Positions 3,048 to 38,612 of a stretch of DNA of 41,898 nucleotides are shown here, piece after piece. Source of the stretch: an uncultured archaeon (GTDB lineage Archaea; Iainarchaeota; Iainarchaeia; Iainarchaeales; 1-14-0-10-31-34); the NCBI GenBank assembly GCA_964442255.1, contig CAYTYC010000012.1, positions 1 through 41,898 of the forward strand. The letters run 5' to 3'. Position numbers and translations under genes: made by a program. A model generated the notes under the pieces. The model worked only from the letters and a program-made list of their open reading frames with translations. It was not told the origin of the DNA and ran no database searches. Each line of letters opens with the position of its first letter. Positions within the stretch are counted from its first letter, which is position 1.

Positions 3048-3974
3048 TTATGGTTTTTGCTTGTTTCTGGTCTCTTCTGCCAATTCGTTCAATTCTCTCA
3101 GGGTTTTGCTGGCAAATTTTTCAAACCCTTTGCCTGGCTCTTCTATCATCAGGCGTTCTTCTTCGCCAAGCCTGAATTTTTCTTCAAATTTCTTGTTTTT
3201 CAGGTTTTCCCCGTATTTGAGGTATTTTAGCATGAACCCGGTTTTTTCTATTGCCATTTTCTTTGCTTTTTGTATTGTAATCCCTTTTTTGGCCAGATAG
3301 TGCAGGTCGATGATGTCTCTTGCCTTGAATCCTCTTCTTGTAAGCAGGGCTCTTATTTTTTCTGCCGCAATTTCCCTGAGATCGTAACAGTGGAATGTTG
3401 AAGCACTGGTGGCCATTGCAGCATATGTTGGGTAAAGGTAGTTGAAGTCTTCAGCATGTTTTTCAGCTATTGCTTTTAGTTTGTGCCTTTCTGGCTCGTG
3501 GAATATTTTGTCAACAAAATTCAGTTGTATTTTTATGAATGTTTTTCTTTCCTCAGTGGTTGGCAAGTACCATAGTTTGAATGTTGCAAACCTGTTGCTT
3601 CCGCCTAACTGAATGTAGTGCCTGTCTGACTTGACTGGCTTGAATTCCAGAGCCAGTTCTTTTGCTGTTTTTTCAATTATTTCCATTATTTCGCTGATTT
3701 CTTTTGAGAGCATTTTCCTTATCTGTTTCTCTGACTTGCCTTCGAACGCTTTCTGTTTTATCCATGTAAAGTCAAGGTCTTCCGAGAAACGATAGTACCC
3801 AAAGTATGCTTTGGTCAGGCAGGTTCCGCCTTTGAATACAAATTTTTCTGAAAAATAGTCTGATTTTGAAAGCCGCAACAGCAGGCCCTGCAGCAAAAGG
3901 TCTTTTTCAATTAACCGGGTGCTTTTTATTTGGAGTTTTTCTGCCAGCCAGTTTAATGTTTCCTCTTTAATCAT
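3048..3974 (-). CDS. abiEii: AbiEii/AbiGii-family nucleotidyltransferase toxin (type IV TA)
   Basis: IEKDLL, FVFKGGTCL, YYRFSEDLDF, AEKIRAL..R...RDIIDL motifs. Confidence 0.9.
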   Translation of the reverse strand: MIKEETLNWLAEKLQIKSTRLIEKDLLLQGLLLRLSKSDYFSEKFVFKGGTCLTKAYFGYYRFSEDLDFTWIKQKAFEGKSEKQIRKMLSKEISEIMEIIEKTAKELALEFKPVKSDRHYIQLGGSNRFATFKLWYLPTTEERKTFIKIQLNFVDKIFHEPERHKLKAIAEKHAEDFNYLYPTYAAMATSASTFHCYDLREIAAEKIRALLTRRGFKARDIIDLHYLAKKGITIQKAKKMAIEKTGFMLKYLKYGENLKNKKFEEKFRLGEEERLMIEEPGKGFEKFASKTLRELNELAEETRNKQKP

Positions 3975-4023
3975 TCAAAATTCCTCCAGAATTTTGAATA
4001 TTTCAAAAAACAGTTTTTTGAAA
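3974..4023. promoter_or_regulatory. Two back-to-back perfect inverted repeats filling the abiEi-abiEii spacer
   Basis: TTCAAAATTC-5nt-GAATTTTGAA (3974-3998) and TTTCAAAAAAC-1nt-GTTTTTTGAAA (4001-4023). Confidence 0.7.
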
Positions 4024-4656
4024 TCATTTCAATTCCTCTAAAACGCTTCTTACTGATTTGCCATAATGCCTTGAGTATTTTTTCATTTTGTTTTTGTCTG
4101 TTTCATCTGCCCATTCGATTACATAATCCCTTATCGTCTTATTGCTTTCTCCGGCATATTTTCGTATGTGGATTATGTCAAGGATTGTTTTTTCCAGGTC
4201 TGAATAAGGTGTGTTTTTGGTTTTCTTTATTCCGAATCCAAATAGTTTCTTGTTTAATTTCACAAACTTGACTTTTCTCTCCAGAATCTTTATTGGCTTT
4301 GCTCGGAATATTTTGTCCGAAACAATGTAATCAATTGTAAAAAACTCATGGGTAATGTTGTTCAGTTTTATTGCGCTCTCCAGCCCAAAATACCAGTTTT
4401 TTACTTTTTTGTATTCCATTGCTTTGGAGATTGCTTCGTAAAAGTTTGGGCCGCCTGTTTTGTATTTCCTTTCCTCCACAGTCGGGATGTAGAAGAAACC
4501 CCTCACAATTCGCTTTAGGTAGTTGTAGAGATACAGGTATTTGATTGCCTTTTTGTATGGCATGCCAATCTTGGCACACTCCTCTTTTATCCCCTCGCCT
4601 GAAATATACCTGTTTTTTCTCAGCAAGAGTTTCCTTACGAAAAGCCCATATTTCAT
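4024..4656 (-). CDS. abiEi: AbiEi-like antitoxin / transcriptional regulator
   Basis: N-terminal wHTH-like (YLKRIVRGFFY), WYFGLESA...N, YSDLEKTILD; upstream of abiEii. Confidence 0.8.
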   Translation of the reverse strand: MKYGLFVRKLLLRKNRYISGEGIKEECAKIGMPYKKAIKYLYLYNYLKRIVRGFFYIPTVEERKYKTGGPNFYEAISKAMEYKKVKNWYFGLESAIKLNNITHEFFTIDYIVSDKIFRAKPIKILERKVKFVKLNKKLFGFGIKKTKNTPYSDLEKTILDIIHIRKYAGESNKTIRDYVIEWADETDKNKMKKYSRHYGKSVRSVLEELK

Positions 4657-5035: not shown

Positions 5036-5083
5036 TCAGCCTTTTGGAAAAAGGCTGGCGAAAAAAAACAAAGCCCGGCTTTG
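5036..5083. repeat. REP-like palindromic repeat copy
   Basis: CAGCCTTTT-GGA-AAAAGGCTG then CAAAGC-CCG-GCTTTG; 5036-5059 matches 27757-27780 at 23/24. Confidence 0.75.
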
Positions 5084-5383
5084 CCTCGCTTTATAAAGGA
5101 CATTTACTATGGGAACTATTTATGCTCCTGGCGAATTTTTCTTCAAAATCCTGAAACCTGCTACCACAAATATAAAGGGGAATGTGTGCGGTTTCTTTGT
5201 CGCCAGTACGAAAGGAGTTTAATTGGCGGTTATTTTTGGAGGGGGTTGAGGTGAGTCATTCTGGCGCACTAAAGACGGGTTACTCAAAAGCAGAAATAAA
5301 TGCGTTCAAAACGCAAATGTAGACGGAAAAAGATTTGGAATACCTGGAACTTGAAGTTATTGAATAGCTTTGAATAATCAAAT

Positions 5384-5854
5384 TCAGCACGTGGCTTTCC
5401 CGTGCTTTTCCGGGTAATCCTGGTGGTATTCCTCTGCCTCAAAAAACTTTCCCGCAGGAACAATCTCTGTCACAATTTTTCCGGAAAACTTTTCCGGTTC
5501 CTGCAATTCTTTTTTTGACTTCAACGCCGTCTCTTTCTGCTCTTCGCTGTGGAAAAAAACCGCGGACCTGTACTGCCCCCCCACATCAGGCCCCTGGCGG
5601 TTCACCTGCAGGGGGTCATGTATTCTCCAGAAAACTTTCAGCAGTTCTTCAAAAGAAACTTTCCCTGAATCAAACTCGACTTCCACTGCCTCGGCGTGCC
5701 CTGTTTTCCCGGAGCAGACTTCCCCATAGGAAGGGGTTTCCGTATTCCCTCCCGTGTAGCCCACCGTAGTGGACAAAACGCCTTCCACTTCCTTGAACGC
5801 AGCCTCAACCCCCCAAAAGCATCCCGCGGCAAAAGTCGCCTTTTCTTTGCTCAT
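5384..5854 (-). CDS. msrA: Peptide-methionine (S)-S-oxide reductase
   Basis: FAAGCFWGVE, GYTGG, TGHAEAV, QYRSAVF, AEEYHQDY. Confidence 0.97.
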   Translation of the reverse strand: MSKEKATFAAGCFWGVEAAFKEVEGVLSTTVGYTGGNTETPSYGEVCSGKTGHAEAVEVEFDSGKVSFEELLKVFWRIHDPLQVNRQGPDVGGQYRSAVFFHSEEQKETALKSKKELQEPEKFSGKIVTEIVPAGKFFEAEEYHQDYPEKHGKATC

Positions 5855-6237
5855 TTTTCCCCATCCTTTTTGAATTCCAGCGCACAGGAGTTAATGCAGT
5901 ACCGTTTCCCTGTTTCAGTCGGCCCGTCATTGAACACGTGCCCGAGATGGCTTCCGCACTTCGGGCACTTAACCCCAGTCCTTTTCATCCAAAGGCTTTT
6001 GTCTTCCCCTGTTTCCACGCTTCCCTTTTTGGCAGGGGCATCAAAACCCGGCCACCCTGTTCCCGAGTCAAATTTTGCCTTTGAGGAAAAAAGCGTGTGC
6101 CCGCAGGCCGCGCAACTGTAAACGCCGTTTTCTTTATTATGCAAAAGCTTTCCGGTAAAAGGAAGTTCGGTTCCCTTTTCACGCAGCACTTTGTACTGCT
6201 TCGGTGAAAGCTTTTTTTTGAATTCTTCTTCATTCAT
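5851..6237 (-). CDS. msrB: Peptide-methionine (R)-S-oxide reductase
   Basis: CAACG, KFDSGTGWPGF, CPKCGSHLGHVFNDGP, RYCINS. Confidence 0.97.
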   Translation of the reverse strand: MNEEEFKKKLSPKQYKVLREKGTELPFTGKLLHNKENGVYSCAACGHTLFSSKAKFDSGTGWPGFDAPAKKGSVETGEDKSLWMKRTGVKCPKCGSHLGHVFNDGPTETGKRYCINSCALEFKKDGEK

Positions 6238-6246
6238 TTAATTGCC

Positions 6247-6822
6247 TCACAGTTTCCTGCTGTCGTAAGCCCAGTGCAAAACAGCCTGCCTCTGCTTTCT
6301 CCTGCATTCAAAGTCGCCTTTTTTGCAGTTTTTTTTGATTTGCGCCAAATGCCTTTTGATTGCCTTCCACCTTTTTACCTGCCTTTCATCGTCTTTGCCC
6401 CTTCTCCCCAAATAATACCTGCAGTACCACTGAAACCTGGCTCAGAAGCAAGCACCAGTTTTGAATTTAAACCTTCTCCCCAAATAATACCTGCAGTACC
6501 ACTGAAACCATCCCCTTGGGTCTTCCCAGTAAATCCAGCCCTTTTTTTTCCACACACTCAATGGCTGTGAGGCGTTTAACCCGAAAAAATTCAGTTCCGG
6601 GTCGTGTTTTTCCGGGCAAAGCTTTGCCTTTTCAAACCAGTTTTCAGGGAATTCTTTTCCGCAGTCAGTCATATACTTTCCGCCGAACACGCCCAGTGCA
6701 AGCATCTGCTTTGGCGTCAGCTCCGGCTTAAACTCCGGGTCAAAGTTTTTTCCCGCCGGTTCGGTTAAATGGTAAACGTAATTTTTCTGCATTTTGTCGT
6801 TCACAACGACTTTTTTCTTCAT
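6247..6822 (-). pseudogene. Conserved hypothetical gene interrupted by a 72-bp in-frame insertion containing TGA
   Basis: LTPKQML.LGVFGGKY ... [17 protein letters not shown], then the insert and a duplicated [12 protein letters not shown]. The same frame continues [17 protein letters not shown]...[13 protein letters not shown] to TGA at 6247. Confidence 0.85.
6400..6509 (+). repeat. Exact 38-bp direct repeat (6400-6437, 6472-6509) flanking a 34-bp unique insert
   Basis: CCTTCTCCCCAAATAATACCTGCAGTACCACTGAAACC occurs twice; the flanking bases differ. Confidence 0.95.
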
Positions 6823-6830
6823 TCAACCAC

Positions 6831-7052
6831 TTAAACGCAGGCCGCCGCGGCCAGGATTCCGTGGACAACAGCCAAAGCCAGGGAAAGCCCAGCCAACCGA
6901 ATGTGCCATTTAAGTTGAATGCCTGCCTTTCCCTTGTGAATCAAATGCCCGGGTATTGCTGTGGCAAACGCCGGGGAAATTGTTGCAATTCCAAGCCAAA
7001 AAACCACGGGCTTTCCCAAAACCAGAAAATACCCTGTCTCCGTTAAAGCCAT
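6831..7052 (-). CDS. Small two-helix membrane protein with H-X13-H motif
   Basis: 73 aa hydrophobic; KWH(50)...H(64)G; operonic spacing of 8-10 bp. Confidence 0.7.
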   Translation of the reverse strand: MALTETGYFLVLGKPVVFWLGIATISPAFATAIPGHLIHKGKAGIQLKWHIRLAGLSLALAVVHGILAAAACV

Positions 7053-7062
7053 GCATTCACCT

Positions 7063-7446
7063 TCAGCTTACGGTGAGGGTTCCCTTCATTCCCTGTTCCC
7101 TGTGCCCCGGAACACTGCAGTAAAAAGCGTAATCGCCTTCCTCTGAAGCCGTGAAAAACACGGTTTCCTCTGCCTGGGAGGAAATGATGTTTGTGGAAAC
7201 ACCGAATTCGTCTATCACTAAATTGTGTCCAACCCTTCCCGTGTTCCTGAAAACAATTTTCACTTTTTCGCCTTTTTCAACAGAAATCGTTTCAGGGGAA
7301 TAGGCAAACTCAAATCCTTCCACCACGATTTCCCTGTCAAAGCTTTCCCCGCCGTTGCCTGAACCGTTTCCGGCAGGAGGCTGCGCGCAGCCCAGCAAAA
7401 TAAGTGAAGCAAAAAGAAAAAAAGCAGGAAGAAATTTTCTGTGCAA
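7063..7446 (-). CDS. Cupredoxin (plastocyanin/azurin-like) lipoprotein
   Basis: LLGC lipobox-like, GHNL, FYCSVPGHREQGMKG type-1 copper ligands; AGGAGG SD before TTG. Confidence 0.9.
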   Translation of the reverse strand: MHRKFLPAFFLFASLILLGCAQPPAGNGSGNGGESFDREIVVEGFEFAYSPETISVEKGEKVKIVFRNTGRVGHNLVIDEFGVSTNIISSQAEETVFFTASEEGDYAFYCSVPGHREQGMKGTLTVS

Positions 7447-7459
7447 GAAAACCCCTCCT

Positions 7460-8173
7460 TTACGCCCTCAGGGAAAACAATTTCCTTGAAAGCACGTAAT
7501 TTTTGTCAACGCTGACTGCGCCGCCTGGAATAAAGTTCTCCAGCCTTGCAAGCAAGGTGGTAAAGCCGACGTATGAAACGCTTATTCCTGCAGCAAACAA
7601 AATCCTTTCGGCCGCGACAACCGGAATCAGCAATAACCAGGCTTCAGCAGGCATTGGCACAGTGTAAAGCCAGAGCGTTGAGCCAATTGCATGCGCGGTG
7701 AAGGTTGCGCCCAAACTCCTTAAAAACAGCCTTTTGGGGAAAAATTTTGCCGCAAGCGGAATCAGCCAGTACAGGGAATAAAACCACACACTCCCCCCGA
7801 TTGGGTGAAGCATGAACAAACCCATGCAAACCAACGGAATAATTGCACTCAGATTCCCTTTAACGCTTTTAATCCTGGTTCCAAAGTAAAGCGCCGCAAA
7901 AAGCATCGGCGCAAGCCTCATTACATTCACCAGTCCAGGCGTTTTTCCAGTCAGGGCAAAGTTGCCTGCTTCAGCCAAAAGCACTGAAGTCGCGCCAACC
8001 ACGGGCCCCAAAAAAGCGCCCGCAATAGGCCCAAAGAACTGGAACAAAGTGAAGTACTGCGCGTCCGCGCCGATAACCGAAGAAAAGTTTATCTGGTAGC
8101 CTATAAGGGCCAAAACAGAGAACAAAACCAAAAACAAAATTTTTTTTCTGGTGAAAACCTCATTCAACCTCAT
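7460..8173 (-). CDS. ECF transporter S-component-like membrane protein
   Basis: 6-7 TM helices; FGPIAGAFLGPVVG resembles the S-component helix motif. Confidence 0.55.
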   Translation of the reverse strand: MRLNEVFTRKKILFLVLFSVLALIGYQINFSSVIGADAQYFTLFQFFGPIAGAFLGPVVGATSVLLAEAGNFALTGKTPGLVNVMRLAPMLFAALYFGTRIKSVKGNLSAIIPLVCMGLFMLHPIGGSVWFYSLYWLIPLAAKFFPKRLFLRSLGATFTAHAIGSTLWLYTVPMPAEAWLLLIPVVAAERILFAAGISVSYVGFTTLLARLENFIPGGAVSVDKNYVLSRKLFSLRA

Positions 8174-8323
8174 TATTTCCCTCCCTGGTTAACTACAGTT
8201 TACAGGAGAGAAAATGCATAAAAAGCTTTTGCGAAGCCTTCACCAAGCTTTCCTTTTGGATAGTAGGCAGGCAAAACAACCTTTAAAACGTTTTTCTCTC
8301 CACTTGCTTTGGAGGCGAAAAAA

Positions 8324-8515
8324 ATGGCTGTATTAAAATGTGATTCCTGCGGTTCAAAAGTTGAAAGCAACAGGTGCTGCGGAAAGCCGATGGACTTAAA
8401 GGGCGGAAAGCTGGTGTGCCGGGAATGCGGAAAAGAAGTTGCAGTGAACATGTGCTGCGGAAACCCAATGCACGAGCACGAGCACAAAGAAATGAAAGAA
8501 GACGACACAAAATAA
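8324..8515 (+). CDS. Small Cys-rich protein with two desulforedoxin-like CxxC...CCGxPM motifs
   Basis: CDSCG..RCCGKPM and CRECG..MCCGNPM; GGAGG SD before ATG 8324. Confidence 0.75.
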   Translation: MAVLKCDSCGSKVESNRCCGKPMDLKGGKLVCRECGKEVAVNMCCGNPMHEHEHKEMKEDDTK

Positions 8516-8532
8516 CTTTTTCTTTTATTTCC

Positions 8533-9861
8533 CTATTTTTTTAGCCAATAACCGCTTTTAAGGATTGCAAATGCAAGCATTGCTGCGGCAATAAATGAAA
8601 CAAGTGCCCCATACCAGGCCCCGTGAAGCCCTATAAGGCGGCTTAAAGCAAATGAAACTGAAAGCGATAAAGTCCACATAAACAAAATTATTCCCGCCGA
8701 AAGCCCTGTTCTCTTTGCCCCCTGAAAGCCCGCATTATAGATGAAAAGCATTCCGCTGAAACCGTAGCTTAAAGCGACAATTGAAAGGTAAACTGTCCCG
8801 ATTTCAACTACCTCTGCACTGGAGGAAAACACAGAGAAAACCTGTGCAGGGAAGGAGAGAAAGAAAACTGAAACAATTAATGAAAGAATTATTGCAATCT
8901 TTGCGGCAATTGAAATTGTTTCCTTCGCGCGTTCAATGTTCCTTGCCCCAAGGTTTTGCCCTACAACCGAAATTGTCGCGCTCGCCAAACCAATCACAGG
9001 CAAAAACGCAAGCGAATCCAGGCGCATTCCAATCCCTAATGCGGCTATTGCAAAAGTCCCGAACGCCCCCACAATGCTCATAAGCAAAACCATTCCGATT
9101 GAGGTAATGCTCTGCCCAAGGGAACTGGGCGTGCCTATTGAAATTATTCTGCGCATTATCCCGAAATCAAACCTGAAGCTTTTCGGGCAGAGCTTGATTT
9201 TGGATTTATTTGAAACCAAATACAAAATAATCAGCCCTGCACCGATTGAACGCGAAATTACCGTTGCGAGAGCCGCACCCACTATTTCCATTCTTGGAAA
9301 CCCAAACAATCCAAAGATTAGCACTGCATCCAGCGCAATGTTCAGCACAACCGCAATGAAATTGAATTTTAATGGAGTTGTGGAGTTTCCGCCTGCCTGA
9401 AGAATGCCCTGGCCAATGAATCCAATGAAAAGGAATACAAAGCCAATGAAAATCAAATCAGAGTAGGCTTTCGTTAAAGGAATCACTTCCCCAGTTGCGC
9501 CCATGAACCCGAATAATGGGGCGGAGAAACTTATTCCAAGAAAAGCGACAACCAGCCCCACGGCCAGTGCAAGCAGAAGGGAGTGTTCGGCAATGTTTCC
9601 CGCTTCCTTGATTTTTTTTGCCCCAACCGCATGGGAAACCAATGCCATTGTGCCAATGCTTAGCCCTGAGGCAAGGGCAATGAAAATAAACACCACGGGA
9701 AAGGTGATTGAAACCGCGGCCAGTTCCTCCGGCCCAAGCATTCCAATGAAGAAAGTGTCAATGATGTTGAAAGCGGTCTGCAACGCAAACCCGGCCATAA
9801 TCGGCAAGGCAAAAAGAACAAGCGTTTTTCCAATGCTTCCGGAAGTCAGGTCACGCTCCAT
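8533..9861 (-). CDS. MATE-family efflux transporter
   Basis: DLTSGSI, IDTFFIGMLG..ELAAV, internal two-fold repeat, about 12 TM. Confidence 0.93.
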   Translation of the reverse strand: MERDLTSGSIGKTLVLFALPIMAGFALQTAFNIIDTFFIGMLGPEELAAVSITFPVVFIFIALASGLSIGTMALVSHAVGAKKIKEAGNIAEHSLLLALAVGLVVAFLGISFSAPLFGFMGATGEVIPLTKAYSDLIFIGFVFLFIGFIGQGILQAGGNSTTPLKFNFIAVVLNIALDAVLIFGLFGFPRMEIVGAALATVISRSIGAGLIILYLVSNKSKIKLCPKSFRFDFGIMRRIISIGTPSSLGQSITSIGMVLLMSIVGAFGTFAIAALGIGMRLDSLAFLPVIGLASATISVVGQNLGARNIERAKETISIAAKIAIILSLIVSVFFLSFPAQVFSVFSSSAEVVEIGTVYLSIVALSYGFSGMLFIYNAGFQGAKRTGLSAGIILFMWTLSLSVSFALSRLIGLHGAWYGALVSFIAAAMLAFAILKSGYWLKK

Positions 9862-9913
9862 CTTCACTTAAATGCCCGGGAAAGTTTTTATCTGTTGCTT
9901 TTGGTTTTCTGCA

Positions 9914-10522
9914 TTACTGGATTATCCCGTATTCTGCTACATTAACATATTGCGTGTCACCTTTTCTTCCAAGGTCGGCTGACCAGGCCGTAAATCTTAT
10001 TTTGTCTCCTTTTTTTACCCCGGGAAAGACTTTTTCTGTTTTTCCATTTGTTGGGCAATCGTGGTAAATGATGTATCCGTCCTTCATTTCGTTTGGAACT
10101 TCCTGGCAACTTGCGACAGCCACAGCGCACTCTGGGCCTTCACAGTTTTCATTAACACAGCTTCCCCCCCTGAAAACTGTTCCTTGAGGGCAGTGTGCTT
10201 GAAGGCCATACTTTATTTTGGCTGGCCTTGCGCTAAAGATAAAGCGAATCTCCATTTCGTCACCCACTTGTTTGACCATTGGGTTTTCTGATATTGGGTC
10301 AATGCTGTCAATTCTTACTTTTGCCTTGTCTTGAGGGCAGATTTCACAGCCCGCTTCTCCCAGTTCGCTTAATTCAACTGAAAGAATTGTCGCCGTGACC
10401 TCTAATTTGGATGCTTCCATGATATCCATTGTTTCACCGGGTAAGCCTCCGCCGATGCATCCGCCAGCCAAAACAATTCCAAAAAATGCAATTATTCCAA
10501 AAACTGTGAAAAGCTTTTTCAT
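9914..10522 (-). CDS. Hypothetical lipoprotein with Cys-rich insert
   Basis: MKK + hydrophobic + AGGC; multiple Cys. Confidence 0.6.
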   Translation of the reverse strand: MKKLFTVFGIIAFFGIVLAGGCIGGGLPGETMDIMEASKLEVTATILSVELSELGEAGCEICPQDKAKVRIDSIDPISENPMVKQVGDEMEIRFIFSARPAKIKYGLQAHCPQGTVFRGGSCVNENCEGPECAVAVASCQEVPNEMKDGYIIYHDCPTNGKTEKVFPGVKKGDKIRFTAWSADLGRKGDTQYVNVAEYGIIQ

Positions 10523-10644
10523 GCACTATTTTAAGCTTTAACCCTTATTTAAAACTTCCCGAATCCATGGGCTAAAATATTGCAATTTCCTTATTCCTGC
10601 GGGAAAAGACTTTTAAATCCTTTACTTGATTATAGGTTTAGAAT

Positions 10645-11868
10645 TTGTTTTTAAGGAAGATGGGGGAAATGCGGGAAATTTCGCGGAGAACACGTGAATT
10701 GGGCACGGAAAACGCTTTTGCCGTGCTTGCCGAGGTTGTCGCGCTTCAAAGGCAAGGAAAAAACATTTTAAGCTTCTGCATCGGCCAGCCCGACTTTCCA
10801 ACCCCAAAAAACGTGTGCAATTGCGCGGAAAACGCCGTGGAAGAAGGAAAAACAGGTTACACCGGCTCGGCAGGAATACTTGAATTAAGGGAGGCGGTTG
10901 CAAAATCCGCTTCAAAGCTCCGCGGAGTCAAGTTTTCCGCGGACGAAGTGATTATTGCGGCAGGCGCAAAGCCCTTTATAGGGTACGCGGTTTTAAGCTG
11001 CACGGATTACGGCAAAGGCGAAGAAATAATTTACCCCAACCCGGGGTACCCGATTTACGAGTCCCAGATTGTGGCGCACGGCGCAAAGCCAGTCCCACTT
11101 CATCTCCTTGAGGAAAAGGAATTCAGGTTTGATGTTGAAGAATTAAAGGAAAAGGTTTCCGCCAAAACAAAACTGCTTGTGATAAACACCCCCCAAAACC
11201 CGACAGGAGGAATACTCAAAAAAGAGGATTTGAAGGCAATCGCTGATTTGGCGGTGGACAAGGATTTCTGGGTTTACTCGGATGAAGTTTACTCGCGCAT
11301 CACCTTTGACGCGCCCTTTGAAAGCATTTCCGCCCTGGAGGGAATGAAAGACAGAACAATCGTGGTTGACGGCGTATCAAAAACTTATTCAATGACCGGA
11401 TGGAGGATAGGCTATTCCCTGAACAGGCCGCTTGCAAAGCACTTTGAAAGGTGGGTGTGCAACACGGAAAGCTGTGCCGCGCAGCCAAGCCAGTGGGCCG
11501 CAGTGGAAGCCTTGAGCGGAGACCAGGGCGAAGTGGAAAAAATGGTTGAAACATTCAGGGAAAGGCGAACCATTATTGTTGACGGATTGAACAATATCCC
11601 CGGCTTCAAGTGCCACCTTCCGGGGGGAGCATTCTATGTTTTTCCAAATGTAACTGAGGCATGCAAAATGGTTGGCGCGGAAAACGCTGAAGAATTCCGC
11701 AAAATGCTGTTGAATGAGGCTGAAGTTGCGGTGCTTGCCGACATCCACTTCGGGCACAAAAACCCTTCACAGGGAGACTTTCTGCGCTTCAGTTACGCGG
11801 CCTCCACTGAACAAATAAGGGAAGGCCTGAAAAGAATCAATGATTTCATGGAAAAAAACCGTGGTTGA
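10645..11868 (+). CDS. Class I/II PLP-dependent (aspartate-type) aminotransferase
   Basis: IGQPDF, NTPQNPTG, SDEVY, GVSKTYSMTGWRIG; true start probably ATG 10660 or 10669. Confidence 0.93.
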   Translation: MFLRKMGEMREISRRTRELGTENAFAVLAEVVALQRQGKNILSFCIGQPDFPTPKNVCNCAENAVEEGKTGYTGSAGILELREAVAKSASKLRGVKFSADEVIIAAGAKPFIGYAVLSCTDYGKGEEIIYPNPGYPIYESQIVAHGAKPVPLHLLEEKEFRFDVEELKEKVSAKTKLLVINTPQNPTGGILKKEDLKAIADLAVDKDFWVYSDEVYSRITFDAPFESISALEGMKDRTIVVDGVSKTYSMTGWRIGYSLNRPLAKHFERWVCNTESCAAQPSQWAAVEALSGDQGEVEKMVETFRERRTIIVDGLNNIPGFKCHLPGGAFYVFPNVTEACKMVGAENAEEFRKMLLNEAEVAVLADIHFGHKNPSQGDFLRFSYAASTEQIREGLKRINDFMEKNRG

Positions 11869-21986: not shown

Positions 21987-22772
21987 ATGGGGCTGAAATT
22001 GAAGGTTTCATTCGAACAATTGCTTGAAAAAGCGAAAAAACTCAATTCACGCAAGGAAAAATGGCATTTTCACATGCTTGGAAAGGACTGCGTGTTCAAT
22101 GAAGACAAGAGCTCTTACGCAATTTTTCTGGAAAACACTTCAAGCGGTGAAATTTTTTCCGCGCACTTCCCCCAACAGCCCCTGACGGAGGCAGCGCAGC
22201 TTGCACTGCTTCTTTACGGAAAAAAGTTTTTTGATGAAGAAGGGGCTGAAGGAAAAAAGGCCACGGAAAGGGGAAAAGAGCTCTTTGAAAGAATAAAAAA
22301 AGTGCACGACCTCGGAGAGGAATGGCACCACCACCATTTTCCCCCGGAATGCCTCTTCAACCAGGACAAAGGCAAGCACGCAATAGTTTTTGAGGACAAG
22401 GAAAACGGAAAGCTTGTTAGAAACCTGTATGATTCCTTTCCCTCGGCTGATTTGAGGATGGTTGAAAAACTCATGTACTCCGTGGAAGACAAAAGCGAAG
22501 GCAAAGAAAAAGAGGAAGCTTGCGAAGGGCAAAGGGAAGAAAACCGGGAAAATGAAAAAGTGCAAGCAGAAGAAGAAACAAAAGAAGAGTCAATTGAGAC
22601 CCCTTCAAAGGAAGGGGGGGACACTTCCGGTGAAGAAACAACTGAAGACACTGAATCAGGGGAAGGGCCCGCGGAAGAAAAAAAGGAAACAGGCGGAGAA
22701 GAAGATTTCGGGGACAGGGAAGACGATTCAGAAGAAGAGGAAGAAGAAGGGGAGAAAAAGGGGGAGACTTAA
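21987..22772 (+). CDS. Hypothetical protein with tandem WHxH..C.FN domains and acidic tail
   Basis: [14 protein letters not shown] and [14 protein letters not shown]; about 95-aa Glu-rich tail. Confidence 0.75.
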
Positions 22773-23320: not shown

Positions 23321-25642
23321 ATGCGCCCAAGGAATTTCCTGTTCTGTTTTCTTGCGATTTTCCTGGTTTTTTTGTTGAGTTGGGGGCTCAGCATGAACTG
23401 GAATTCATTGTATACCGCGCCAAAATCAATCGGCTTAAGCCTTATGGAATACGATACAAAAATTGCGCCGGAACAGGAAGCATGCTTTTCCCTGCAAATT
23501 GAATCCAATTTCGCCAAAAAAACAAACAGAAACCTCACAGTAATTGCTAATCAAAGAATTGCGCTGGAAAAAGAGGTTGACGTTTCCAAAAACCCTTTGC
23601 TAAAGGAATGCCTTTCGGCAGAATTTTTTTCCGAAGGAGAAAACTTTGTTGAAATGCGGATGGAGGAAAAACGGGTTTTTTACCATTTAAGTGCAGAAGA
23701 CGGAGTTAAGGAAAGTGTCCCTGTGCTTGCGCTTGAATCCTTGCCGGGAACAAGGGACAAAGTTATTGTAACAGTCACAAACAACCCTGATACAGCCTAC
23801 ACTCCGGTGGAAATCTATGTTAACGGGAAATTAGACCACCGGGCTTATTTCTCGGGAGAAAACTTTTCGTCAGCCGAAAGAATTGAATTAAGGGAAGGCA
23901 AAAACGAAGTAAAGGCGGTTTTCTTAGGGCAGGAAGACGAGATTTATGTGGAAAAGCCTTTGGGCTTCAAAATGAATCCCTTCCTTGGATTGATTGTTTT
24001 ATCCCTGCTTTTATGTGTTCTCGCTTTTCTGGTGTTCCCGAAAAAAGGCTTTTTTGAAAGGATTTCCTTTTCAATTCTCGCCTTTTTCTCAATTGTCTGC
24101 GTTGTTTTCTTTTTGCTTTACGTTTCCGGAATCCTTTCCGCGCAAAACTTTGTTGCAGGAATAATTGTTGTTGCGGTTGCTTTGGCTGTTTTTTTCAGGA
24201 AAAATTTTCGGAAACCCGACAGCCTTTTCACGGAAAACTGGAAAAAAAGGATTAAATCATTTCCCCCGCTTCTCTTCATGCTCTTGTGCATGATTCTGTT
24301 CTCATCGCTTTTCTTCAACTTTTTCACCCCCACCTACTTCGGGGTCTGGACAAGCTTTTATGAAAGGCAGTCCCGCACCATAATGGAAACACAGGAAATT
24401 CCTGTAACAGATGAATACAGTTTCCTTGGGACAAAGCCCTTCGGCTACATGACAGGCTATTTTTTCCTTAACCCCGGAATTTCGTGGTTAACCGGCCTGC
24501 CCACGCAACAAAGCTATGCGATAATAATGATTTTATCCCAGCTTGCGCTAATTGCATCCGCATTCCTTTTCTTTGGCACATTTGGGTTGGGAAGAAAGGC
24601 GTACATCGCGGTTGCGGTGAGCTTGTTTGGGGGATTTGTTTTCTCTGACTTCAGCTTCAACATAAGGCACGTGGTAAGCTATGCTTTCCTTTTCATGGGC
24701 ATGTATATGCTCCGAAAAAACAATGCGGTTGGCAGCGGGCTGGCTCTCGGATTCGGAACCTTTTTCCAGGCGCCGCTGTTTGCGATGTGCCTGGTGTTAG
24801 CGCCGGTGATTATCACAAAAAAGGAGGGCCTGAAAACGCTTGCCGTTTCCCTTTCTGTTGCAGCTTTAACCGCCCTCGTGTTTTTCGCCCCCACCCTATT
24901 GCAGGCAGGCATTCCCACACAGGCAATGCACAACGTTTGGGGGCATTTCTGGAGCATTCCCCTGTACGGGTTTGTGCTGGACTACCTGTCAATTCTTTTG
25001 CTGATTGCGCTCTTCATTGTTCCCTTTGTTTTCCTGAAAAAAGTGAAGTTCACCGCGTTTTCCCTGCGTGTTTTGGCTTTCCTTTTGCTTTTCATTTTCA
25101 TTCAGCTGTTTGTGAGCTACAGGATAAATGTGCCGGCGACAATAACCTTTGCACTGCTTGTGGCGCTTTTGTTTCCCGCGGACTTTGTGCGTGACAGGCT
25201 GAGGGAATATTCGATGTCAAGTTTTTTTGCCTTGGGCTATGCGTTCATGTTCATAGTGATAATAGCCTTCTACCCCGTTACGCCCTATGTTTCAGACGCC
25301 GCGGAATTTGTAAAGGAAAACACTTCCACTGAGGCAAACATTTTGAACGAGCCCTACCTCGGCCATCCATTAATTCATCTGGCGGAAAGAAAGGCTTCCG
25401 CGGATTTGGCCGTGGAGTATGCTAACCAGGGGATGATTGAGGACAGCTACAAATTCATTAAAAACAAGAACCCGGAAATTTTGGGGAAGTACGGAATAGA
25501 CTACGTGTTCACGCGCTCCGTTTTTCTGGATGAAAAGCCTGTGGGCGACAACTGGCACTGGGAAGTGATTGAATTCCCTTTCCTGGACAAGGTTTACGCA
25601 AACGAATACCTTATGGTGCACCGGGAAAGAAAAAACACGTAA
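23321..25642 (+). CDS. Large polytopic membrane protein, GT-C glycosyltransferase-like
   Basis: N-terminal TM, about 200-aa external domain, more than 12 TMs with loop FYERQ...DEYSF..KPFGY, C-terminal NILNEP..GH and KYGIDYVF. Confidence 0.55.
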   Translation: MRPRNFLFCFLAIFLVFLLSWGLSMNWNSLYTAPKSIGLSLMEYDTKIAPEQEACFSLQIESNFAKKTNRNLTVIANQRIALEKEVDVSKNPLLKECLSAEFFSEGENFVEMRMEEKRVFYHLSAEDGVKESVPVLALESLPGTRDKVIVTVTNNPDTAYTPVEIYVNGKLDHRAYFSGENFSSAERIELREGKNEVKAVFLGQEDEIYVEKPLGFKMNPFLGLIVLSLLLCVLAFLVFPKKGFFERISFSILAFFSIVCVVFFLLYVSGILSAQNFVAGIIVVAVALAVFFRKNFRKPDSLFTENWKKRIKSFPPLLFMLLCMILFSSLFFNFFTPTYFGVWTSFYERQSRTIMETQEIPVTDEYSFLGTKPFGYMTGYFFLNPGISWLTGLPTQQSYAIIMILSQLALIASAFLFFGTFGLGRKAYIAVAVSLFGGFVFSDFSFNIRHVVSYAFLFMGMYMLRKNNAVGSGLALGFGTFFQAPLFAMCLVLAPVIITKKEGLKTLAVSLSVAALTALVFFAPTLLQAGIPTQAMHNVWGHFWSIPLYGFVLDYLSILLLIALFIVPFVFLKKVKFTAFSLRVLAFLLLFIFIQLFVSYRINVPATITFALLVALLFPADFVRDRLREYSMSSFFALGYAFMFIVIIAFYPVTPYVSDAAEFVKENTSTEANILNEPYLGHPLIHLAERKASADLAVEYANQGMIEDSYKFIKNKNPEILGKYGIDYVFTRSVFLDEKPVGDNWHWEVIEFPFLDKVYANEYLMVHRERKNT

Positions 25643-25700: not shown

Positions 25701-26387
25701 TTGGCGGACAAGGTTTTGCTTAACCAAAGCGCGAAAAAGGTTGAACGCGAATTGTACAGGTCCAGTTCGCTTTTAACGAATTTGAAGGAATTGAACGGCT
25801 CGCTGGAAAGCATTTACTCCAACCTGCTGAAACTGGAGGGGCTTGCAGAAGAAAACCCCGTGATTGCAAAAAAGTTGAGGGAACAGTTCAGGGAAACAAA
25901 AATCCTTCCATTGTTCAAGAAAATGGAGCAAAATTTGGTGGGGTTTAGGGGGGAGCTGGAAAGGCTTGAGGACAGCTCACTGAAAGCAAACCTTTTCCTT
26001 GAGGGAATGCGCGGCGAGCGCACATACAAATTCCGCGATGAAGTGGGCGCAAGGGAATTCATTGAGGAACTGCTTTCAGCCCTTGCGGTTGAAGAGGTCA
26101 CCTTCAGGCCCGAATTCATTGGGGTAACGGATTTAAGCGGAATAGCAGAAGAGCTTGAAGTTGAAAAAGGAAAAAACCAGGCGCTGAAGGTGCCGTCCCA
26201 TAAAGTGCAGAGACTGTTTGAAATTGTCTCCAAAAGCACGGAACCAAAAAATTTCAGGATTGAAACCGGTTTGTTCAGGCTCTGGTGGAACACGAAAAAC
26301 CAGTTTTCGGTTGAGGCGGAAACCGGCCTGCTGAAAAGGATTGACCGAATCTCCAAAAACCTTGAGGCAACCTTTTTTGAGGGCTAA
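25701..26387 (+). CDS. Hypothetical coiled-coil protein
   Basis: 228-aa ORF with genome-typical codon use and heptad-rich N-half. Confidence 0.65.
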   Translation: MADKVLLNQSAKKVERELYRSSSLLTNLKELNGSLESIYSNLLKLEGLAEENPVIAKKLREQFRETKILPLFKKMEQNLVGFRGELERLEDSSLKANLFLEGMRGERTYKFRDEVGAREFIEELLSALAVEEVTFRPEFIGVTDLSGIAEELEVEKGKNQALKVPSHKVQRLFEIVSKSTEPKNFRIETGLFRLWWNTKNQFSVEAETGLLKRIDRISKNLEATFFEG

Positions 26388-27679
26388 TCCGTAAAAGCGG
26401 AGGCGGTTTCCCCGCCGTCCCAGCTGAATCTCGGTCGTACTTTAATCATCCACAGTTTCTCGGTGTTGTCGTCCAGCACAAGCGCGTATCCCTTTGATTT
26501 TGGCATTTCCTGGAAGTATTTGTCAAAGTCCTGGTGGAGGTAGGAGGGACGGAGCTGCGAGACTGCCTCAATGTCGGGCTGGGAGGTCATGCGGTGGCTT
26601 AAGAACAGGTCGCATTGTGAAATAGCGTCGGGGTGAATCTTGTTCGGCCTCTGGGTTGCGAGCACCAAACTCAGCCCCGGCTGCCTTCCAACCCTAACCC
26701 ATTCAAGCAGAACGCTTAAGGCAATGCTTTTCCTGTCGTTTGGCATGAACATGTGCGCCTCGTCTATAAGCATCCAAACCAAAGGCATTTCGCTTTCCCT
26801 TTTTTCCCCGTGAATCAGCCTTATTTCTTCTTCTTTCCTGTAAAGCATTCTTTCCTCAAACAATTTTTTTCCAAGAAGCCCGACAATAATGTCGCGGGTT
26901 CCCTCCATTTCAATTGCCTGCCTGTAGGCTGAAACATCAATTATTGTTATTTTTCCGGGTTCGGCTATTTCCCTGATTTTTGTTCCCTGTTTTTCAAACA
27001 ATCCCCAGCTGTCCGCGATTTTCAGCCTGTTTTTCACCGCCTGCGCGGTTGTCTTGTCGGCTTCCCTGTCTTTTTCAACTTCCTGCATTAACTCCTTTAA
27101 CCCGTAGTATGAGCCCAGCCTTTCCTTCAGTTTTTCCACAACCCGTGAAAGCAGCACTCCCTCTTTTTCCCTCCAGTTGATTCCAAACAATGAAAGCCAT
27201 TCTTCGGGCTCAAGCTCCGCTGTTTTAAGCGTAAAGCTTCCGTCAATTGGAACCTTTTTGTCCTCGTAAAATTTTTTTTTTCCCTTTGGCACCAGCACCT
27301 GAACATCAGTGGAGTCGGGCTCCAAATCCCAGTTGAATAATTCGCTTTTTTCCTCGTTGTTTGCAACCTTCAGCGTCCAAAAGATTCCCACCGTGTCAAT
27401 CGCAATAACCGAAATGCGTTTTTTTATGTGCTCGGGCTGTCGCGCAAATTCCTCTATAAGCACAGAAAGGCTATAGCTCTTACCGCCTCCGCGTTTTCCG
27501 CAAATCAACATCACGTGGGGCTTTGCGATGTCCATCAAAATTTTTCTGCCGAGCACAGGCCTTTCACCTGAGCTCATCACAACTTTTCCGAGGTAGGCGG
27601 TTCCCTTCTCGCGGTACTTTTCCAAATCCCCCAAACTTCTTCCAATAACCGACTGCTTCTCGAAATCTTCCAAAGCCAT
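26384..27679 (-). CDS. HerA/FtsK-superfamily ATPase (DUF87-like)
   Basis: CGKRGGGKS Walker A, LIDEAH Walker B, GRQPG, LATQRP. Confidence 0.88.
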   Translation of the reverse strand: MALEDFEKQSVIGRSLGDLEKYREKGTAYLGKVVMSSGERPVLGRKILMDIAKPHVMLICGKRGGGKSYSLSVLIEEFARQPEHIKKRISVIAIDTVGIFWTLKVANNEEKSELFNWDLEPDSTDVQVLVPKGKKKFYEDKKVPIDGSFTLKTAELEPEEWLSLFGINWREKEGVLLSRVVEKLKERLGSYYGLKELMQEVEKDREADKTTAQAVKNRLKIADSWGLFEKQGTKIREIAEPGKITIIDVSAYRQAIEMEGTRDIIVGLLGKKLFEERMLYRKEEEIRLIHGEKRESEMPLVWMLIDEAHMFMPNDRKSIALSVLLEWVRVGRQPGLSLVLATQRPNKIHPDAISQCDLFLSHRMTSQPDIEAVSQLRPSYLHQDFDKYFQEMPKSKGYALVLDDNTEKLWMIKVRPRFSWDGGETASAFTD

Positions 27680-30424: not shown

Positions 30425-31270
30425 TTATTTAAGGTATAACAGGGTTTTTCTCCAGATTGTGGGGGTAATGGCGGGGTCGTAGTTGAAGTAAATGCTTTTT
30501 CCCACAATAAGGTTTTTTTCCACTATTCCCGGGTAAATGTCCAGCCCGTTCACGTTTTCTATTTGGGCGATTTCGTTTCCAACAGGGGTTACAGGGAATG
30601 TTTCAAGGTAATAGGGCGCAATTCCTTCAGCGGGCGCAATGTCAATGCCCTCCATTATCTGGTGCTTATAATCAACCCTCACAATCCTTCCTGCCACGGC
30701 TCTCCTATCGGTGCAGCCGTCCATTAACGGGTTATCCGTGTTATCGCACCTCACTGGCACAACGTCCCCAAAGGTTGCCTGCCAGCCCAGCACATCCGAT
30801 GCCCCGGGAACCCTTATCCCGGAATCCATTACCACGATTAGCTTGCCCCCGAACTGAACTTTTTTCTTTATTGCTTCAGCCACTTTTGCGGGAATTTCCT
30901 TGCTTCCCTCAAGGTGCTGGTCAAGTATGATTATCGGAAACTGCGCGAGCTGTTCTTCAGGCGAAACCTTTAACTGGTTGATGCTCCTGTAATGCACCCT
31001 CACTATGTCTTTGTTGTCGCTGAATGATTTTTCCATTGCAGGCGAAGCCGAGCCCACAAACAGCACGTTAGTCGGCTCCCCTCCGCCCAAACCAGGGATT
31101 TCCCAGAAGCCGAACCTGTGGCCAAGGAAAGCCACAATAATCAGGATTAAAATCAAGGGAATTAATCCTTCAAGGTTTCTTGACATTTTTCCCCTGAACC
31201 CGCCACCGGCAGGGGGGCTGTAATCAGCCGGAGAACCTCCTCCGCCTCCACCGTCGTCTTCCGGGTACAC
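30425..31270 (-). CDS. Membrane-anchored class I GATase-fold protein
   Basis: Gly/Pro-rich N-terminus, TM, QLAQFPIIIL...KKVQFGGKLIV. Confidence 0.7.
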   Translation of the reverse strand: MYPEDDGGGGGGSPADYSPPAGGGFRGKMSRNLEGLIPLILILIIVAFLGHRFGFWEIPGLGGGEPTNVLFVGSASPAMEKSFSDNKDIVRVHYRSINQLKVSPEEQLAQFPIIILDQHLEGSKEIPAKVAEAIKKKVQFGGKLIVVMDSGIRVPGASDVLGWQATFGDVVPVRCDNTDNPLMDGCTDRRAVAGRIVRVDYKHQIMEGIDIAPAEGIAPYYLETFPVTPVGNEIAQIENVNGLDIYPGIVEKNLIVGKSIYFNYDPAITPTIWRKTLLYLK

Positions 31271-33143: not shown

Positions 33144-34076
33144 TTATTTCAGCATTCCGTTGTACATGTTCACTAAAATGTAATAGTATTTTTCCTCCAA
33201 ATCGGGGTGCGCAAACATTTCCGGGGGAAGCGCATAATAAGCCACTTTCCCGCCCCTTGTGATTATCACGGGAAAAACCCTCCCCAAATCCTCTCCATTG
33301 GAGTCCTTTACCGCTCCCCCGACATCCACGCTTAAAGGCGTTGTGCTGCCTGCTGCCCCTGAAGGCTTTACGACAGCAAAATTGCCCCGCATTAAAAGGT
33401 TTTTCTTCAAGCCCACAATAAACGCGTTGCCTGGCTCAACTCCCACTTCCAGCCTTCCAGCCAAAACACCCGTATGGCAGTTTTCGTCAAAGGAAGACAT
33501 TCCACAGTAATTGCCCTTATAGTTTGCGCCAATGAAGTCATCGAATGCAACAATTTTTTCTCCCTCTTTTCTCGCCCACGGCCCAATGATTTCGTGGTCG
33601 TTTTTTCCTTCCGGCCTTTCATCAAAGTACAGGAAATTGTCGTCCCTTCCAAGGACTGTCCCGGCATCACCTGTCCAGACAACCCTTCCGCCCTGGTTCA
33701 CGTAATTCATGAAATACTTTAACTGCCTGGTTTCCATTTCCCTTGCACGGGTTACAATCACAAGATGATAATCCTTCAAATTCCCTTCATTCAATAAATC
33801 CGTGTGAAGCCGGTAAGGGTAAACCCCGATATAGTCCCTGTCCCTTAAAATGTCCGCCAATAAATCCGGGTCACCCAAGCCCGAGTCACCGTAAACTATG
33901 AGCACTTTTGGCTGCCCCAAGACAGTGTAATAAACTTCGCACCACCCCGGAATTGTGCTGCACTTCATTATTCCGCTCCAAGTCAAAATAAACAGCACAA
34001 TTGCAACCAAAACCAGGAGCACAACCACGTGCATGGCGGTTTTCAGGGGAGACTGGGGCTGTCCGGGGTACTTCAT
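33144..34076 (-). CDS. Membrane-anchored class I GATase-fold protein, probable paralog of 30425-31270
   Basis: TM, PKVLIVYGD, LKDYHLVIVT...YVNQGGRVVW. Confidence 0.7.
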   Translation of the reverse strand: MKYPGQPQSPLKTAMHVVVLLVLVAIVLFILTWSGIMKCSTIPGWCEVYYTVLGQPKVLIVYGDSGLGDPDLLADILRDRDYIGVYPYRLHTDLLNEGNLKDYHLVIVTRAREMETRQLKYFMNYVNQGGRVVWTGDAGTVLGRDDNFLYFDERPEGKNDHEIIGPWARKEGEKIVAFDDFIGANYKGNYCGMSSFDENCHTGVLAGRLEVGVEPGNAFIVGLKKNLLMRGNFAVVKPSGAAGSTTPLSVDVGGAVKDSNGEDLGRVFPVIITRGGKVAYYALPPEMFAHPDLEEKYYYILVNMYNGMLK

Positions 34077-34127
34077 TTTCACCACAAAGCAAACGCTTTT
34101 ATTCCTTAAGGATTAAGTAGTTTTTAA

Positions 34128-34745
34128 CTATAATAATGTTTTGTTTGAGGTTTTTTGGATGGTTAAACTTTCCCGCGGCCCGGGGGTAAGCGGTCCAAGC
34201 AGTTCCCTTGGAATAATGCGTTTCTTTGACGTGGACACCGGCGGACCAAAAATGTCGCCGGAATTCATTGTCGCATTAAGCGTTGTATTCATAATAATTG
34301 TTGTGATAGTTAAAAGCCTGCTGCCGTCCTGATTATTTGGGCCTTCTTTGCCCCGTCCTTTTCGTGGGCTTTCCCTTAACCCCGGCTTTTCCTTGGTTTC
34401 AGCCTTTTTTCCTTTCAGGATTGAGTCGGCTTCCTTTATTGTGGAGTAAGGGTCAAGCCGCCCTACTGTTGCCCTTAATCCTGCAAGCGCAAGGGTTCTC
34501 TCCCTGAAGCCGTACTTGGTTTTTTCCAGCATCGCCTTTGTGAATAGGTCAATGTACTCCTGGAATTTTCCGGCTTCAATAAGCTCTTTTGCGGTCGGCA
34601 TTCCAAGCCGCCGCATCCCGGGGTCAAAAACCCTCAGCTTTCCCCAAAGTTGTGCGTTCACCAATTCCCTTTCACGTATTTCTTCATCAGGGGTTTCAAC
34701 AGCGGCCTTCAAGGCAACCTCAATCGGGTCAGCCACTCTATTCAC
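34128..34745 (-). CDS. Hypothetical protein; its C-terminal part overlaps sec61beta antisense
   Basis: GTGA coupling to the ileS stop; about the first 135 aa look protein-like. Confidence 0.55.
   Translation of the reverse strand: MNRVADPIEVALKAAVETPDEEIRERELVNAQLWGKLRVFDPGMRRLGMPTAKELIEAGKFQEYIDLFTKAMLEKTKYGFRERTLALAGLRATVGRLDPYSTIKEADSILKGKKAETKEKPGLRESPRKGRGKEGPNNQDGSRLLTITTIIMNTTLNATMNSGDIFGPPVSTSKKRIIPRELLGPLTPGPRESLTIQKTSNKTLL
34159..34332 (+). CDS. secG: Preprotein translocase subunit Sec61beta (archaeal SecG)
   Basis: GPSSSLGIMRFFD...GPKMSPEFIV + TM. Confidence 0.9.
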   Translation: MVKLSRGPGVSGPSSSLGIMRFFDVDTGGPKMSPEFIVALSVVFIIIVVIVKSLLPS

Positions 34746-38260: not shown

Positions 38261-38335
38261 TGGGGCCAGGAGGATTTGAACCCCCGACACATGGCGTATA
38301 AGACCATTGCTCTAACCAGGCTGAGCTATAGCCCC
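38261..38335 (-). tRNA. trnI: tRNA-Ile(UAU)
   Basis: GGGGCTA/TGGCCCC acceptor, ATGGT-CTTATAC-GCCAT anticodon arm, GGGGG-TTCAAAT-CCTCC, A73. Confidence 0.9.
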
Positions 38336-38612
38336 TTGCCGGCTGCTGCCGGCAGTGCAGGGTGCCATCTGCGATGGCACTTGCTCGCCCCAATGGGCTC
38401 GCACTGCCCCTTGCCCATTCCGTAGGGCAGGTCCGGTGTGCCGGCTGTTCCCGGCAGTGGAATCCCGCCTGCTCGCGGGAGCGGAGTGCGCCATGCTTTG
38501 CATGGCAGTTGTTCGGCTTTCGCCTCGCACTTGCCGCCTTCTTGCGGCAGCAGAGATGTCCTGTTTCCTCCGCTTTTGCTCCGGAGGCAGATCTGCTCGC
38601 TTCGCTTGCAGT
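38336..38612. repeat. GC-rich multi-hairpin cassette upstream of tRNA-Ile
   Basis: About nine hairpins; the 27-mer shared with the tRNA-Val cassette; 10-bp direct repeat GCCCCTTGCC at 38331 and 38406. Confidence 0.8.

Follow-up and report, generated by a model that had tools for sequence, protein, structure and literature searches.

A repeat-length duplication enclosing a spacer-length insert in a conserved gene of a Diapherotrites-like archaeon: a candidate natural case of off-target spacer acquisition

Results and discussion

The contig and its genes

The locus described here lies on a contig of 41,898 nt from an uncultured archaeon; the whole contig was analysed and is referred to as the window. 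Directly upstream of msrB, a conserved gene is split into a truncated ORF and an orphaned 3' part by an exact duplication that encloses a short insert (Table 1). Archaeal genes on the contig include those for HTH_10, TrmB, HerA and a NusA-type KH protein, and its IleRS is closest to that of Candidatus Diapherotrites (DPANN), with 55-68% identity. No cas gene was recognised by Pfam or PADLOC among the approximately 45 ORFs of the window, in agreement with the preliminary description of this DNA, and other array-like repeats do not occur in the 41.9-kb contig. CRISPR-Cas is mostly missing from DPANN archaea (PMC5704561); type II-D loci that include cas1/cas2/cas4 are nonetheless common in this group (PMC12669027).

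The only defence-related genes seen on the contig are a MazF/PemK toxin gene and an AbiEi/AbiEii pair (type IV toxin-antitoxin, abortive infection), which are located 2-4 kb from the insertion, and a gene coding for a HerA-like ATPase. A gene for tRNA-Ile with a TAT anticodon, predicted by ARAGORN, is immediately followed by two occurrences of a 21-nt palindromic GC-rich motif, TGCCGGCTGCTGCCGGCAGTG, which are 90% identical and 102 nt apart. An imperfect, TGC-codon-rich direct repeat of 48 nt (75% identity, 78 nt apart) probably codes for a Cys-rich motif that is duplicated within a small ORF, situated between the genes of a 237-aa membrane protein and a MatE transporter. A 773-aa protein and proteins of 200-300 aa encoded at several positions gave no match to Pfam or PADLOC.

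Table 1. Features of the interrupted gene and of the surrounding contig (positions in the window)
Feature	Position	Strand or orientation	Basis or remark
PQQ-type beta-propeller gene	~1-1300	minus	extends beyond the left contig end
Segment CCTGGCTCAGAtggagAAGCAAGCA, similar to part of the insert	636-660	minus	within the PQQ-type beta-propeller gene
MazF/PemK toxin gene	2145-2501	minus	
AbiEi/AbiEii pair	3048-4656	minus	
msrB (SelR), downstream neighbour	5851-6237	minus	Pfam SelR match (L001, L157, L158)
Restored 167-aa gene	6247-6822 less 6438-6509	minus	intact in the relatives, at L157:6001-6504 and L158:6001-6504
Orphaned 3' gene part (GKDDER...DSRKL + stop)	6247-6399	minus	restored translation aligned end to end with homologues
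Duplicated 38-nt target, copy 1	6400-6437	downstream in the gene's own orientation	exact direct repeat
34-nt insert	6438-6471	between the copies	spacer length; = TGGCTCAGAAGCAAGCACCAGTTTTGAATTTAAA
Duplicated 38-nt target, copy 2	6472-6509	upstream in the gene's own orientation	100% identical to 6400-6437
Truncated ORF, 126 aa	6442-6822	minus	ORF listing and translation
Imperfect 48-nt direct repeat	8348-8395 / 8426-8473		
200-300-aa proteins	21987-22772, 25701-26387, 30425-31270, 33144-34745		
773-aa protein	23321-25642	plus	
HerA-like ATPase	26384-27679		
tRNA-Ile (TAT)	38261-38335	minus	ARAGORN
21-nt palindromic motif, two occurrences	38337-38357 / 38439-38459		

Structure of the interrupted gene

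The 126-aa ORF consists of the N-terminal 117 residues of a conserved protein and nine residues encoded by the insert, which also supplies the in-frame TGA on the minus strand. Deletion of 72 nt, in whichever register, brings the 3' part into frame with the upstream part and results in a minus-strand ORF of 167 aa. That removal of 72 bp gives an intact 167-aa gene had been claimed before, and the gap-free alignment of the restored protein with its homologues confirms it. In an exact look-up, neither the truncated 126-aa ORF nor a TTG-start neighbour was found on record.

Both copies of the target have the sequence CCTTCTCCCCAAATAATACCTGCAGTACCACTGAAACC, and comparison of the two verified the exact 38-bp duplication around 34 bp that the preliminary description had reported. 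Since the bases beside one copy are unlike those beside the other, the repeat cannot be extended and is exactly 38 nt long. The pair is the sole exact local repeat in the 41.9-kb window. The exact 38-mer duplication is not a chance event; by our own estimate, the probability of an exact 38-mer recurring within 150 nt of 42 kb is ~1e-16. A repeat-length exact duplication around an unrelated, spacer-length insert is thereby present, as 38 + 34 + 38 nt; with a period of 72 nt, the structure can equally be read as 38/34, 37/35 or 36/36 nt. On the plus strand, taken as the CRISPR sense, copy 1 is a 37-nt repeat-like unit which ends with ACTGAAAC and is followed by one C, and the insert amounts to 35 nt if the duplication is taken as 37 nt. 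Read on the coding (minus) strand, this unit consists of a G followed by the 37 nt of GTTTCAGTGGTACTGCAGGTATTATTTGGGGAGAAGG, and so starts with G + GTTTCAGT. A CAGT-ACC-ACTG mini-hairpin of 4 bp, also noted earlier, is present as stated. The insert has no inverted repeats at its termini and no coding capacity.

Direct repeats around foreign DNA are a general signature of integration, and highly conserved genes can be attachment sites; besides, the AbiEi/AbiEii and MazF genes nearby suggest some traffic of mobile DNA. The structure could on these grounds be a footprint left by some other integrase or by a mobile element, e.g. an att-flanked remnant after internal deletion, or the product of an unknown integrase whose staggered cuts are long. 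The bare termini and the missing coding capacity of the insert, as well as the absence of a recombinase gene beside the site, argue against such a footprint, and an att-flanked remnant would moreover need an unlikely internal deletion. Nor does the insertion recur in the gene family in the metagenome and viral collections. Transposons and casposons likewise duplicate their target directly by staggered cuts and gap repair, and casposases are homologues of Cas1; however, their known target-site duplications measure ~2-15 bp, far below the 38 bp found here, and their inserts measure kilobases and end in inverted repeats, as opposed to 34 nt without any. Taken together, we regard the footprint of an element as a rather remote explanation. 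A transposon or MITE was rejected as a candidate, as the termini are not inverted, the duplication is too long, and no other copy occurs in the window or in the collections searched.

That removal of any 72-nt register restores the ORF also accords with a functional intervening sequence, namely an archaeal bulge-helix-bulge intron arising from pairing of the repeats, in which case the gene would still work. In formal terms, the two copies can produce a minimal symmetric CA-GUG-GUAC-UG motif, with a 4-bp helix between two 3-nt bulges and 2 bp at either end. However, this motif is by itself unfavourable, at +5.0 kcal/mol, the best fold that contains it has -18.4 kcal/mol compared to a minimum free energy of -34.9 kcal/mol (16.5 kcal/mol worse), and the fold of the region is no better than that of shuffled sequence (z = 0.32). 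With thousands of homologues lacking the insert and none of 34 pattern matches (see below) falling in the gene family, an intron is barely credible, and we rejected it on the folding energies.

The 167-aa protein family and its ancestral state

The restored 167-aa protein has more than 8,000 homologues, which originate from Woesearchaeota, Patescibacteria, Omnitrophica and others. The best of them, with lengths of 164-176 aa, share 75-86% identity with it over 98-100% of the query and align without gaps. In an alignment of 19 sequences the restored protein is also free of gaps, and the insertion is located inside the most conserved block of the protein, where the duplicated 38-nt target codes for (W) + 12 residues. 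The two closest relatives (L157 and L158; 86% identity) possess an intact gene followed by msrB, in the order observed in the window, and alignment of the DNA of the window with that of these two relatives revealed a single clean 72-nt insertion, confined to the window. Thousands of homologues are likewise free of any insert. Judged from these alignments, the un-inserted gene is the ancestral state.

The 167-aa family spans Archaea (Diapherotrites-like, Woesearchaeota) and Bacteria (Patescibacteria, Omnitrophica, Blastocatellia). Its many invariant residues include C54, C110, C142, C149, H73, H134 and H159, and in three genomes the gene is located directly upstream of msrB. Comparison with Pfam, NCBIfam, PHROGs and PDB sequences did not yield a match, and the AlphaFold model of the protein (pLDDT 61) is too poor for a fold comparison. 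The conservation of this unannotated protein across domains is worth a separate study.

In the window, the conserved W-F-Q-W codons have the sequence GTTTCAGT; the corresponding codons of the two relatives, L157 and L158, read GTTCCAAT and GTTTCAAT. Such sequences are typical 5' ends of archaeal and bacterial CRISPR repeats, and if this holds for all three, the gene family would carry an intrinsic repeat-like motif, which could attract Cas1-Cas2 in other organisms as well. A second case of insertion in the 167-aa gene family was not found in scans of metagenome and viral sequences. A degenerate WYCRYY...WYCRYY pattern with a period of 48-78 matched 28 metagenome and 6 viral loci, all of them unrelated low-complexity repeats. 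None of these 34 loci belongs to the gene family; therefore, the event appears to be a one-off, and a recurrent hotspot or programmed element was discarded.

Representation of the structure in sequencing reads

In an independent assembly (Logan, k = 31, run SRR7048218), two contigs match the window. Contig L001 is identical to positions 5069-6429, and contig L002 corresponds to positions 6480-10871 with one mismatch at 9959. The Logan assembly breaks at 6429 and resumes at 6480, each of these positions being k-1 = 30 nt into the outer edge of the 38-mer. If the 38-mer occurs in the reads with two left and two right contexts, the de Bruijn graph must break at 6429 and 6480. An intact gene alone would be assembled through without a break, and a chance overlap with the homologue of another organism would not recreate both edges of the same 38-mer. 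Since the breaks lie exactly k-1 into both outer edges, the repeat-insert-repeat structure is present in the raw reads; a coexisting intact allele is not visible at k = 31.

The mismatch at position 9959 (A in the window, G in L002) is the only difference in 5.7 kb of otherwise identical sequence, and indicates strain-level heterogeneity within the sample or between samples.

Misassembly, which the preliminary description had named as a possible cause, is contradicted by the position of the Logan break points at both edges of the 38-mer. More generally, an artefact of sequencing, library preparation or assembly would imply that the structure is absent from the DNA of the organism, or confined to a negligible fraction of the molecules. 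The structure was found in a metagenome contig, SRR7048218 is the only sample known to carry this contig, and the single-nucleotide difference between the window and the Logan contig shows that the population is to some extent heterogeneous. However, two different assemblies are concordant, and the Logan breaks need insert-repeat and repeat-insert k-mers that survived error filtering. Moreover, assemblers operating at k above 38 do not create an unrelated 34-nt sequence, and chimeric reads are random, without precise in-register duplication. An artefact thus seems improbable to us.

Resemblance to a class of CRISPR repeats

One genome per GTDB species was scanned for three occurrences of GTTTCAG spaced by a period of 71-75 nt. 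At least 120 species matched, indicating that the GTTTCAG repeat class is large. Among the matches listed, the repeat opens with GTTTCAG in 78 of 95 arrays; it is 37 nt long in 55 of these 95, 36 nt in 8 and 38 nt in 6. Of 71 clean arrays, likewise among the matches listed, 67 begin with GTTTCAGT, like the site in the window, and the array periods peak at 72 (23%) and 73 (25%). The listed arrays are mostly bacterial, and none is from DPANN. Genes coding for Cas1 and Cas4 adjoin such arrays in L104, L046 and L078, and the orientation of the Cas genes implies a sense repeat that ends with ACTGAAAC, which corresponds to the plus strand of the window. The unit in the window coincides with the mode of the class whether it is read as 37 + 35 + 37 nt, in which case one C is common to both copies by chance, or as 38 + 34 + 38 nt. 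The preliminary description had likened the CTGAAAC(C) end of the duplicated site to that of many CRISPR repeats, and this end does match the terminal 8-mer of the 37-nt repeat class.

The likeness does not extend far beyond these features. The best single repeat among the matches listed, from a Nostocaceae genome (L092), is identical to the site at 25 of 37 positions; its tail identity of 18 of 30 is reached by only 0.45% of the 30-mers of the window. In a scan with a profile of the class, the whole site ranked 6 of 83,724, with nearly all of the score contributed by the terminal 8 nt, whereas the tail score of the site is within the top 26% of window positions only, the interior being ordinary. 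The resemblance between site and class is confined to the terminal 8 nt and the lengths. This fit is, moreover, partly circular, as the class was chosen by the site's own 7-mer, the site itself having been picked for its CRISPR-like lengths in the preliminary description, and the occurrence of GTTTCAGT at the site is accounted for by the W-F-Q-W codons alone. The leaders of 54 real arrays of the class were too diverse for comparison.

The 37-nt GTTTCAGT arrays with Cas1/Cas4 from Cyanobacteria, Chloroflexota and others thus share with the site the terminal 8-mer, a unit length within one nucleotide, and the period of 72. In contrast to these arrays, the site has two copies only and no leader, lacks a stable internal stem of the CCCC...GGGG type, and is located inside a protein-coding gene, in an archaeon of a group absent among the listed arrays. 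A canonical CRISPR array, i.e. at least three regular repeats with a leader and usually with cas genes nearby, was rejected as a description of the locus, which has only the two copies, both within coding sequence.

Source of the insert

The 34-nt insert has no further copy in the window, even when up to 8 mismatches are allowed. In IMG/VR, neither the complete 34-mer nor two wobble-tolerant patterns nor a pair of 20-mers gave matches above chance level, the 24-nt core of the insert did not match any JGI metagenome contig or GTDB genome, and blastn against GenBank phages and PLSDB plasmids retrieved chance-level matches only. The comparison with viruses and plasmids suggested earlier as a check on the 34-mer thus gave no source within these collections. 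A protospacer, or an array carrying the insert, was not detected in the viral, metagenome, genome, phage and plasmid collections searched.

The best local similarity is a gapped match of 19 nt, CCTGGCTCAGA[tggaga]AGCAAGCA, between CC plus the initial 17 nt of the insert and positions 660-636 on the minus strand. Seven of 300 shuffles attained the same alignment score, 28 (p about 0.02), and the similarity is probably due to chance. With its 6-nt gap, the segment is in the same reading frame as the insert (PGSDGEAS vs PGSEAS). The insert may derive from a paralogue or homologue of the PQQ beta-propeller gene in which this segment is located.

These data bear on an origin of the structure that would not involve any CRISPR machinery, namely an accident of replication or repair at a stalled or broken fork, by microhomology-mediated template switching, break-induced replication or end-joining with filler, in the course of which 34 nt would have been copied from another part of the genome and synthesis resumed 38 nt upstream. 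A duplication around a short unrelated insert is the formal product of such events, the contig is devoid of cas genes, and the similarity to 660-636 hints at a paralogue in the same genome as the source of the insert. However, this match contains a gap, extends over no more than half of the insert and is of marginal significance. Since the two 38-mers have remained identical, a recent copy of a template would be expected to match it exactly, and an exact donor is absent from the 41.9 kb; a local templated copy, which the preliminary description had considered as a counter-explanation, was accordingly not encountered there. Besides, a repair accident does not predict a duplication of 37/38 nt, a filler of 34/35 nt, or a boundary at the terminal 8-mer of a CRISPR repeat class. 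We consider it a possible, albeit doubtful, origin.

Proposed origin by off-target spacer acquisition

The best available reading of the locus, to which we assign somewhat better than an even chance, is a natural and recent off-target (ectopic) spacer acquisition by Cas1-Cas2. Ectopic integration is favoured by the observed lengths, by a boundary that falls on the terminal ACTGAAAC, and by the absence of a template on the contig. Of the evidence that might be expected for a natural neo-CRISPR event, as proposed in the preliminary description, the anatomy, the read support, the ancestral intact state and the repeat-class end speak in its favour, while cas1/cas2 and a native array were not found on the contig, nor a protospacer in the collections searched.

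According to this proposal, a Cas1-Cas2 integrase, probably one that serves repeats of ~37 nt ending with ACTGAAAC in the crRNA sense, would have mistaken coding DNA for a repeat, the target being the codons of a 13-residue stretch in the conserved 167-aa gene. Two staggered strand transfers, 37-38 bp apart, would have joined a prespacer of 34-35 nt, and gap repair would then have duplicated the target. The product would be a solitary repeat-spacer-repeat unit that adds 72 nt and an in-frame stop, truncating the gene at residue 117. We infer that Cas1-Cas2 was the agent, that such a system is present in the archaeon or acted in its cell, and that the insert is of foreign origin.

Off-target integration by Cas1-Cas2 into repeat-like, non-CRISPR DNA has been observed in vitro with the Pyrococcus furiosus system (PMC6698737), and off-target integration in vivo is attributed to Nivala et al. 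2018 in the passages citing that study (PMC7054753; bioRxiv 10.1101/148544). The neo-CRISPR events reported (Nivala, Shipman & Church 2018, Nat Microbiol 3:310; PMC6698737) resemble the present case in that a non-CRISPR site is duplicated once, at repeat length, around a spacer-length insert, in that the target shares features with real repeats (here the terminal ACTGAAAC), and in that they can land in genes and be deleterious. They differ in having been produced by overexpression of Cas1-Cas2 in E. coli, with a duplication of 28 bp, or in vitro. In contrast, the case in the window is natural, apparently a high-frequency allele, occurs in an uncultivated DPANN archaeon and involves a duplication of 37/38 bp, and neither cas genes (on the contig) nor a native array or protospacer (in the collections searched) were identified for it.

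Repeat-spacer-repeat units without adjacent cas genes are also carried by viruses and mobile elements, as solitary repeat units and mini-CRISPR arrays. The repeats of such mini-CRISPR units match the CRISPR repeats of the host, and the units are kept for their function, whereas in the window part of a conserved host gene has been duplicated to form the "repeat", and the presence of the unit destroys the gene.

A variant of the off-target reading is that the archaeon has no adaptation module of its own and Cas1-Cas2 was supplied in trans, by a host cell that this DPANN archaeon is attached to, a virus or a plasmid, or that the unit is the first of an array born in a gene of a CRISPR-poor lineage. 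We deem this variant unlikely. If true, it would provide a natural snapshot of the de novo genesis of an array, or of the activity of a cross-cell or element-borne integrase.

Conclusions

To our knowledge, off-target integration has been shown mainly under forced expression of Cas1-Cas2 or in vitro, and natural cases are few and circumstantial. If off-target acquisition is confirmed for the locus described here, the locus would add a natural neo-CRISPR seed, located in a conserved gene of an unusual host, to the examples of a phenomenon already known, and would not constitute a new kind of system. If, on the other hand, no adaptation module exists that could have acted on this genome, the locus would represent a mutation of an unusual type, a duplication with filler that bears a close likeness to CRISPR acquisition, and would call for caution in the use of array-prediction tools. 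Should the off-target reading be true, the interrupted gene would be a natural record of a cost of CRISPR adaptation, i.e. of self-inflicted gene disruption, and at the same time of the proposed first step in the birth of new arrays. It would also imply that a lineage generally considered CRISPR-poor contains an active adaptation module or is acted on by one.
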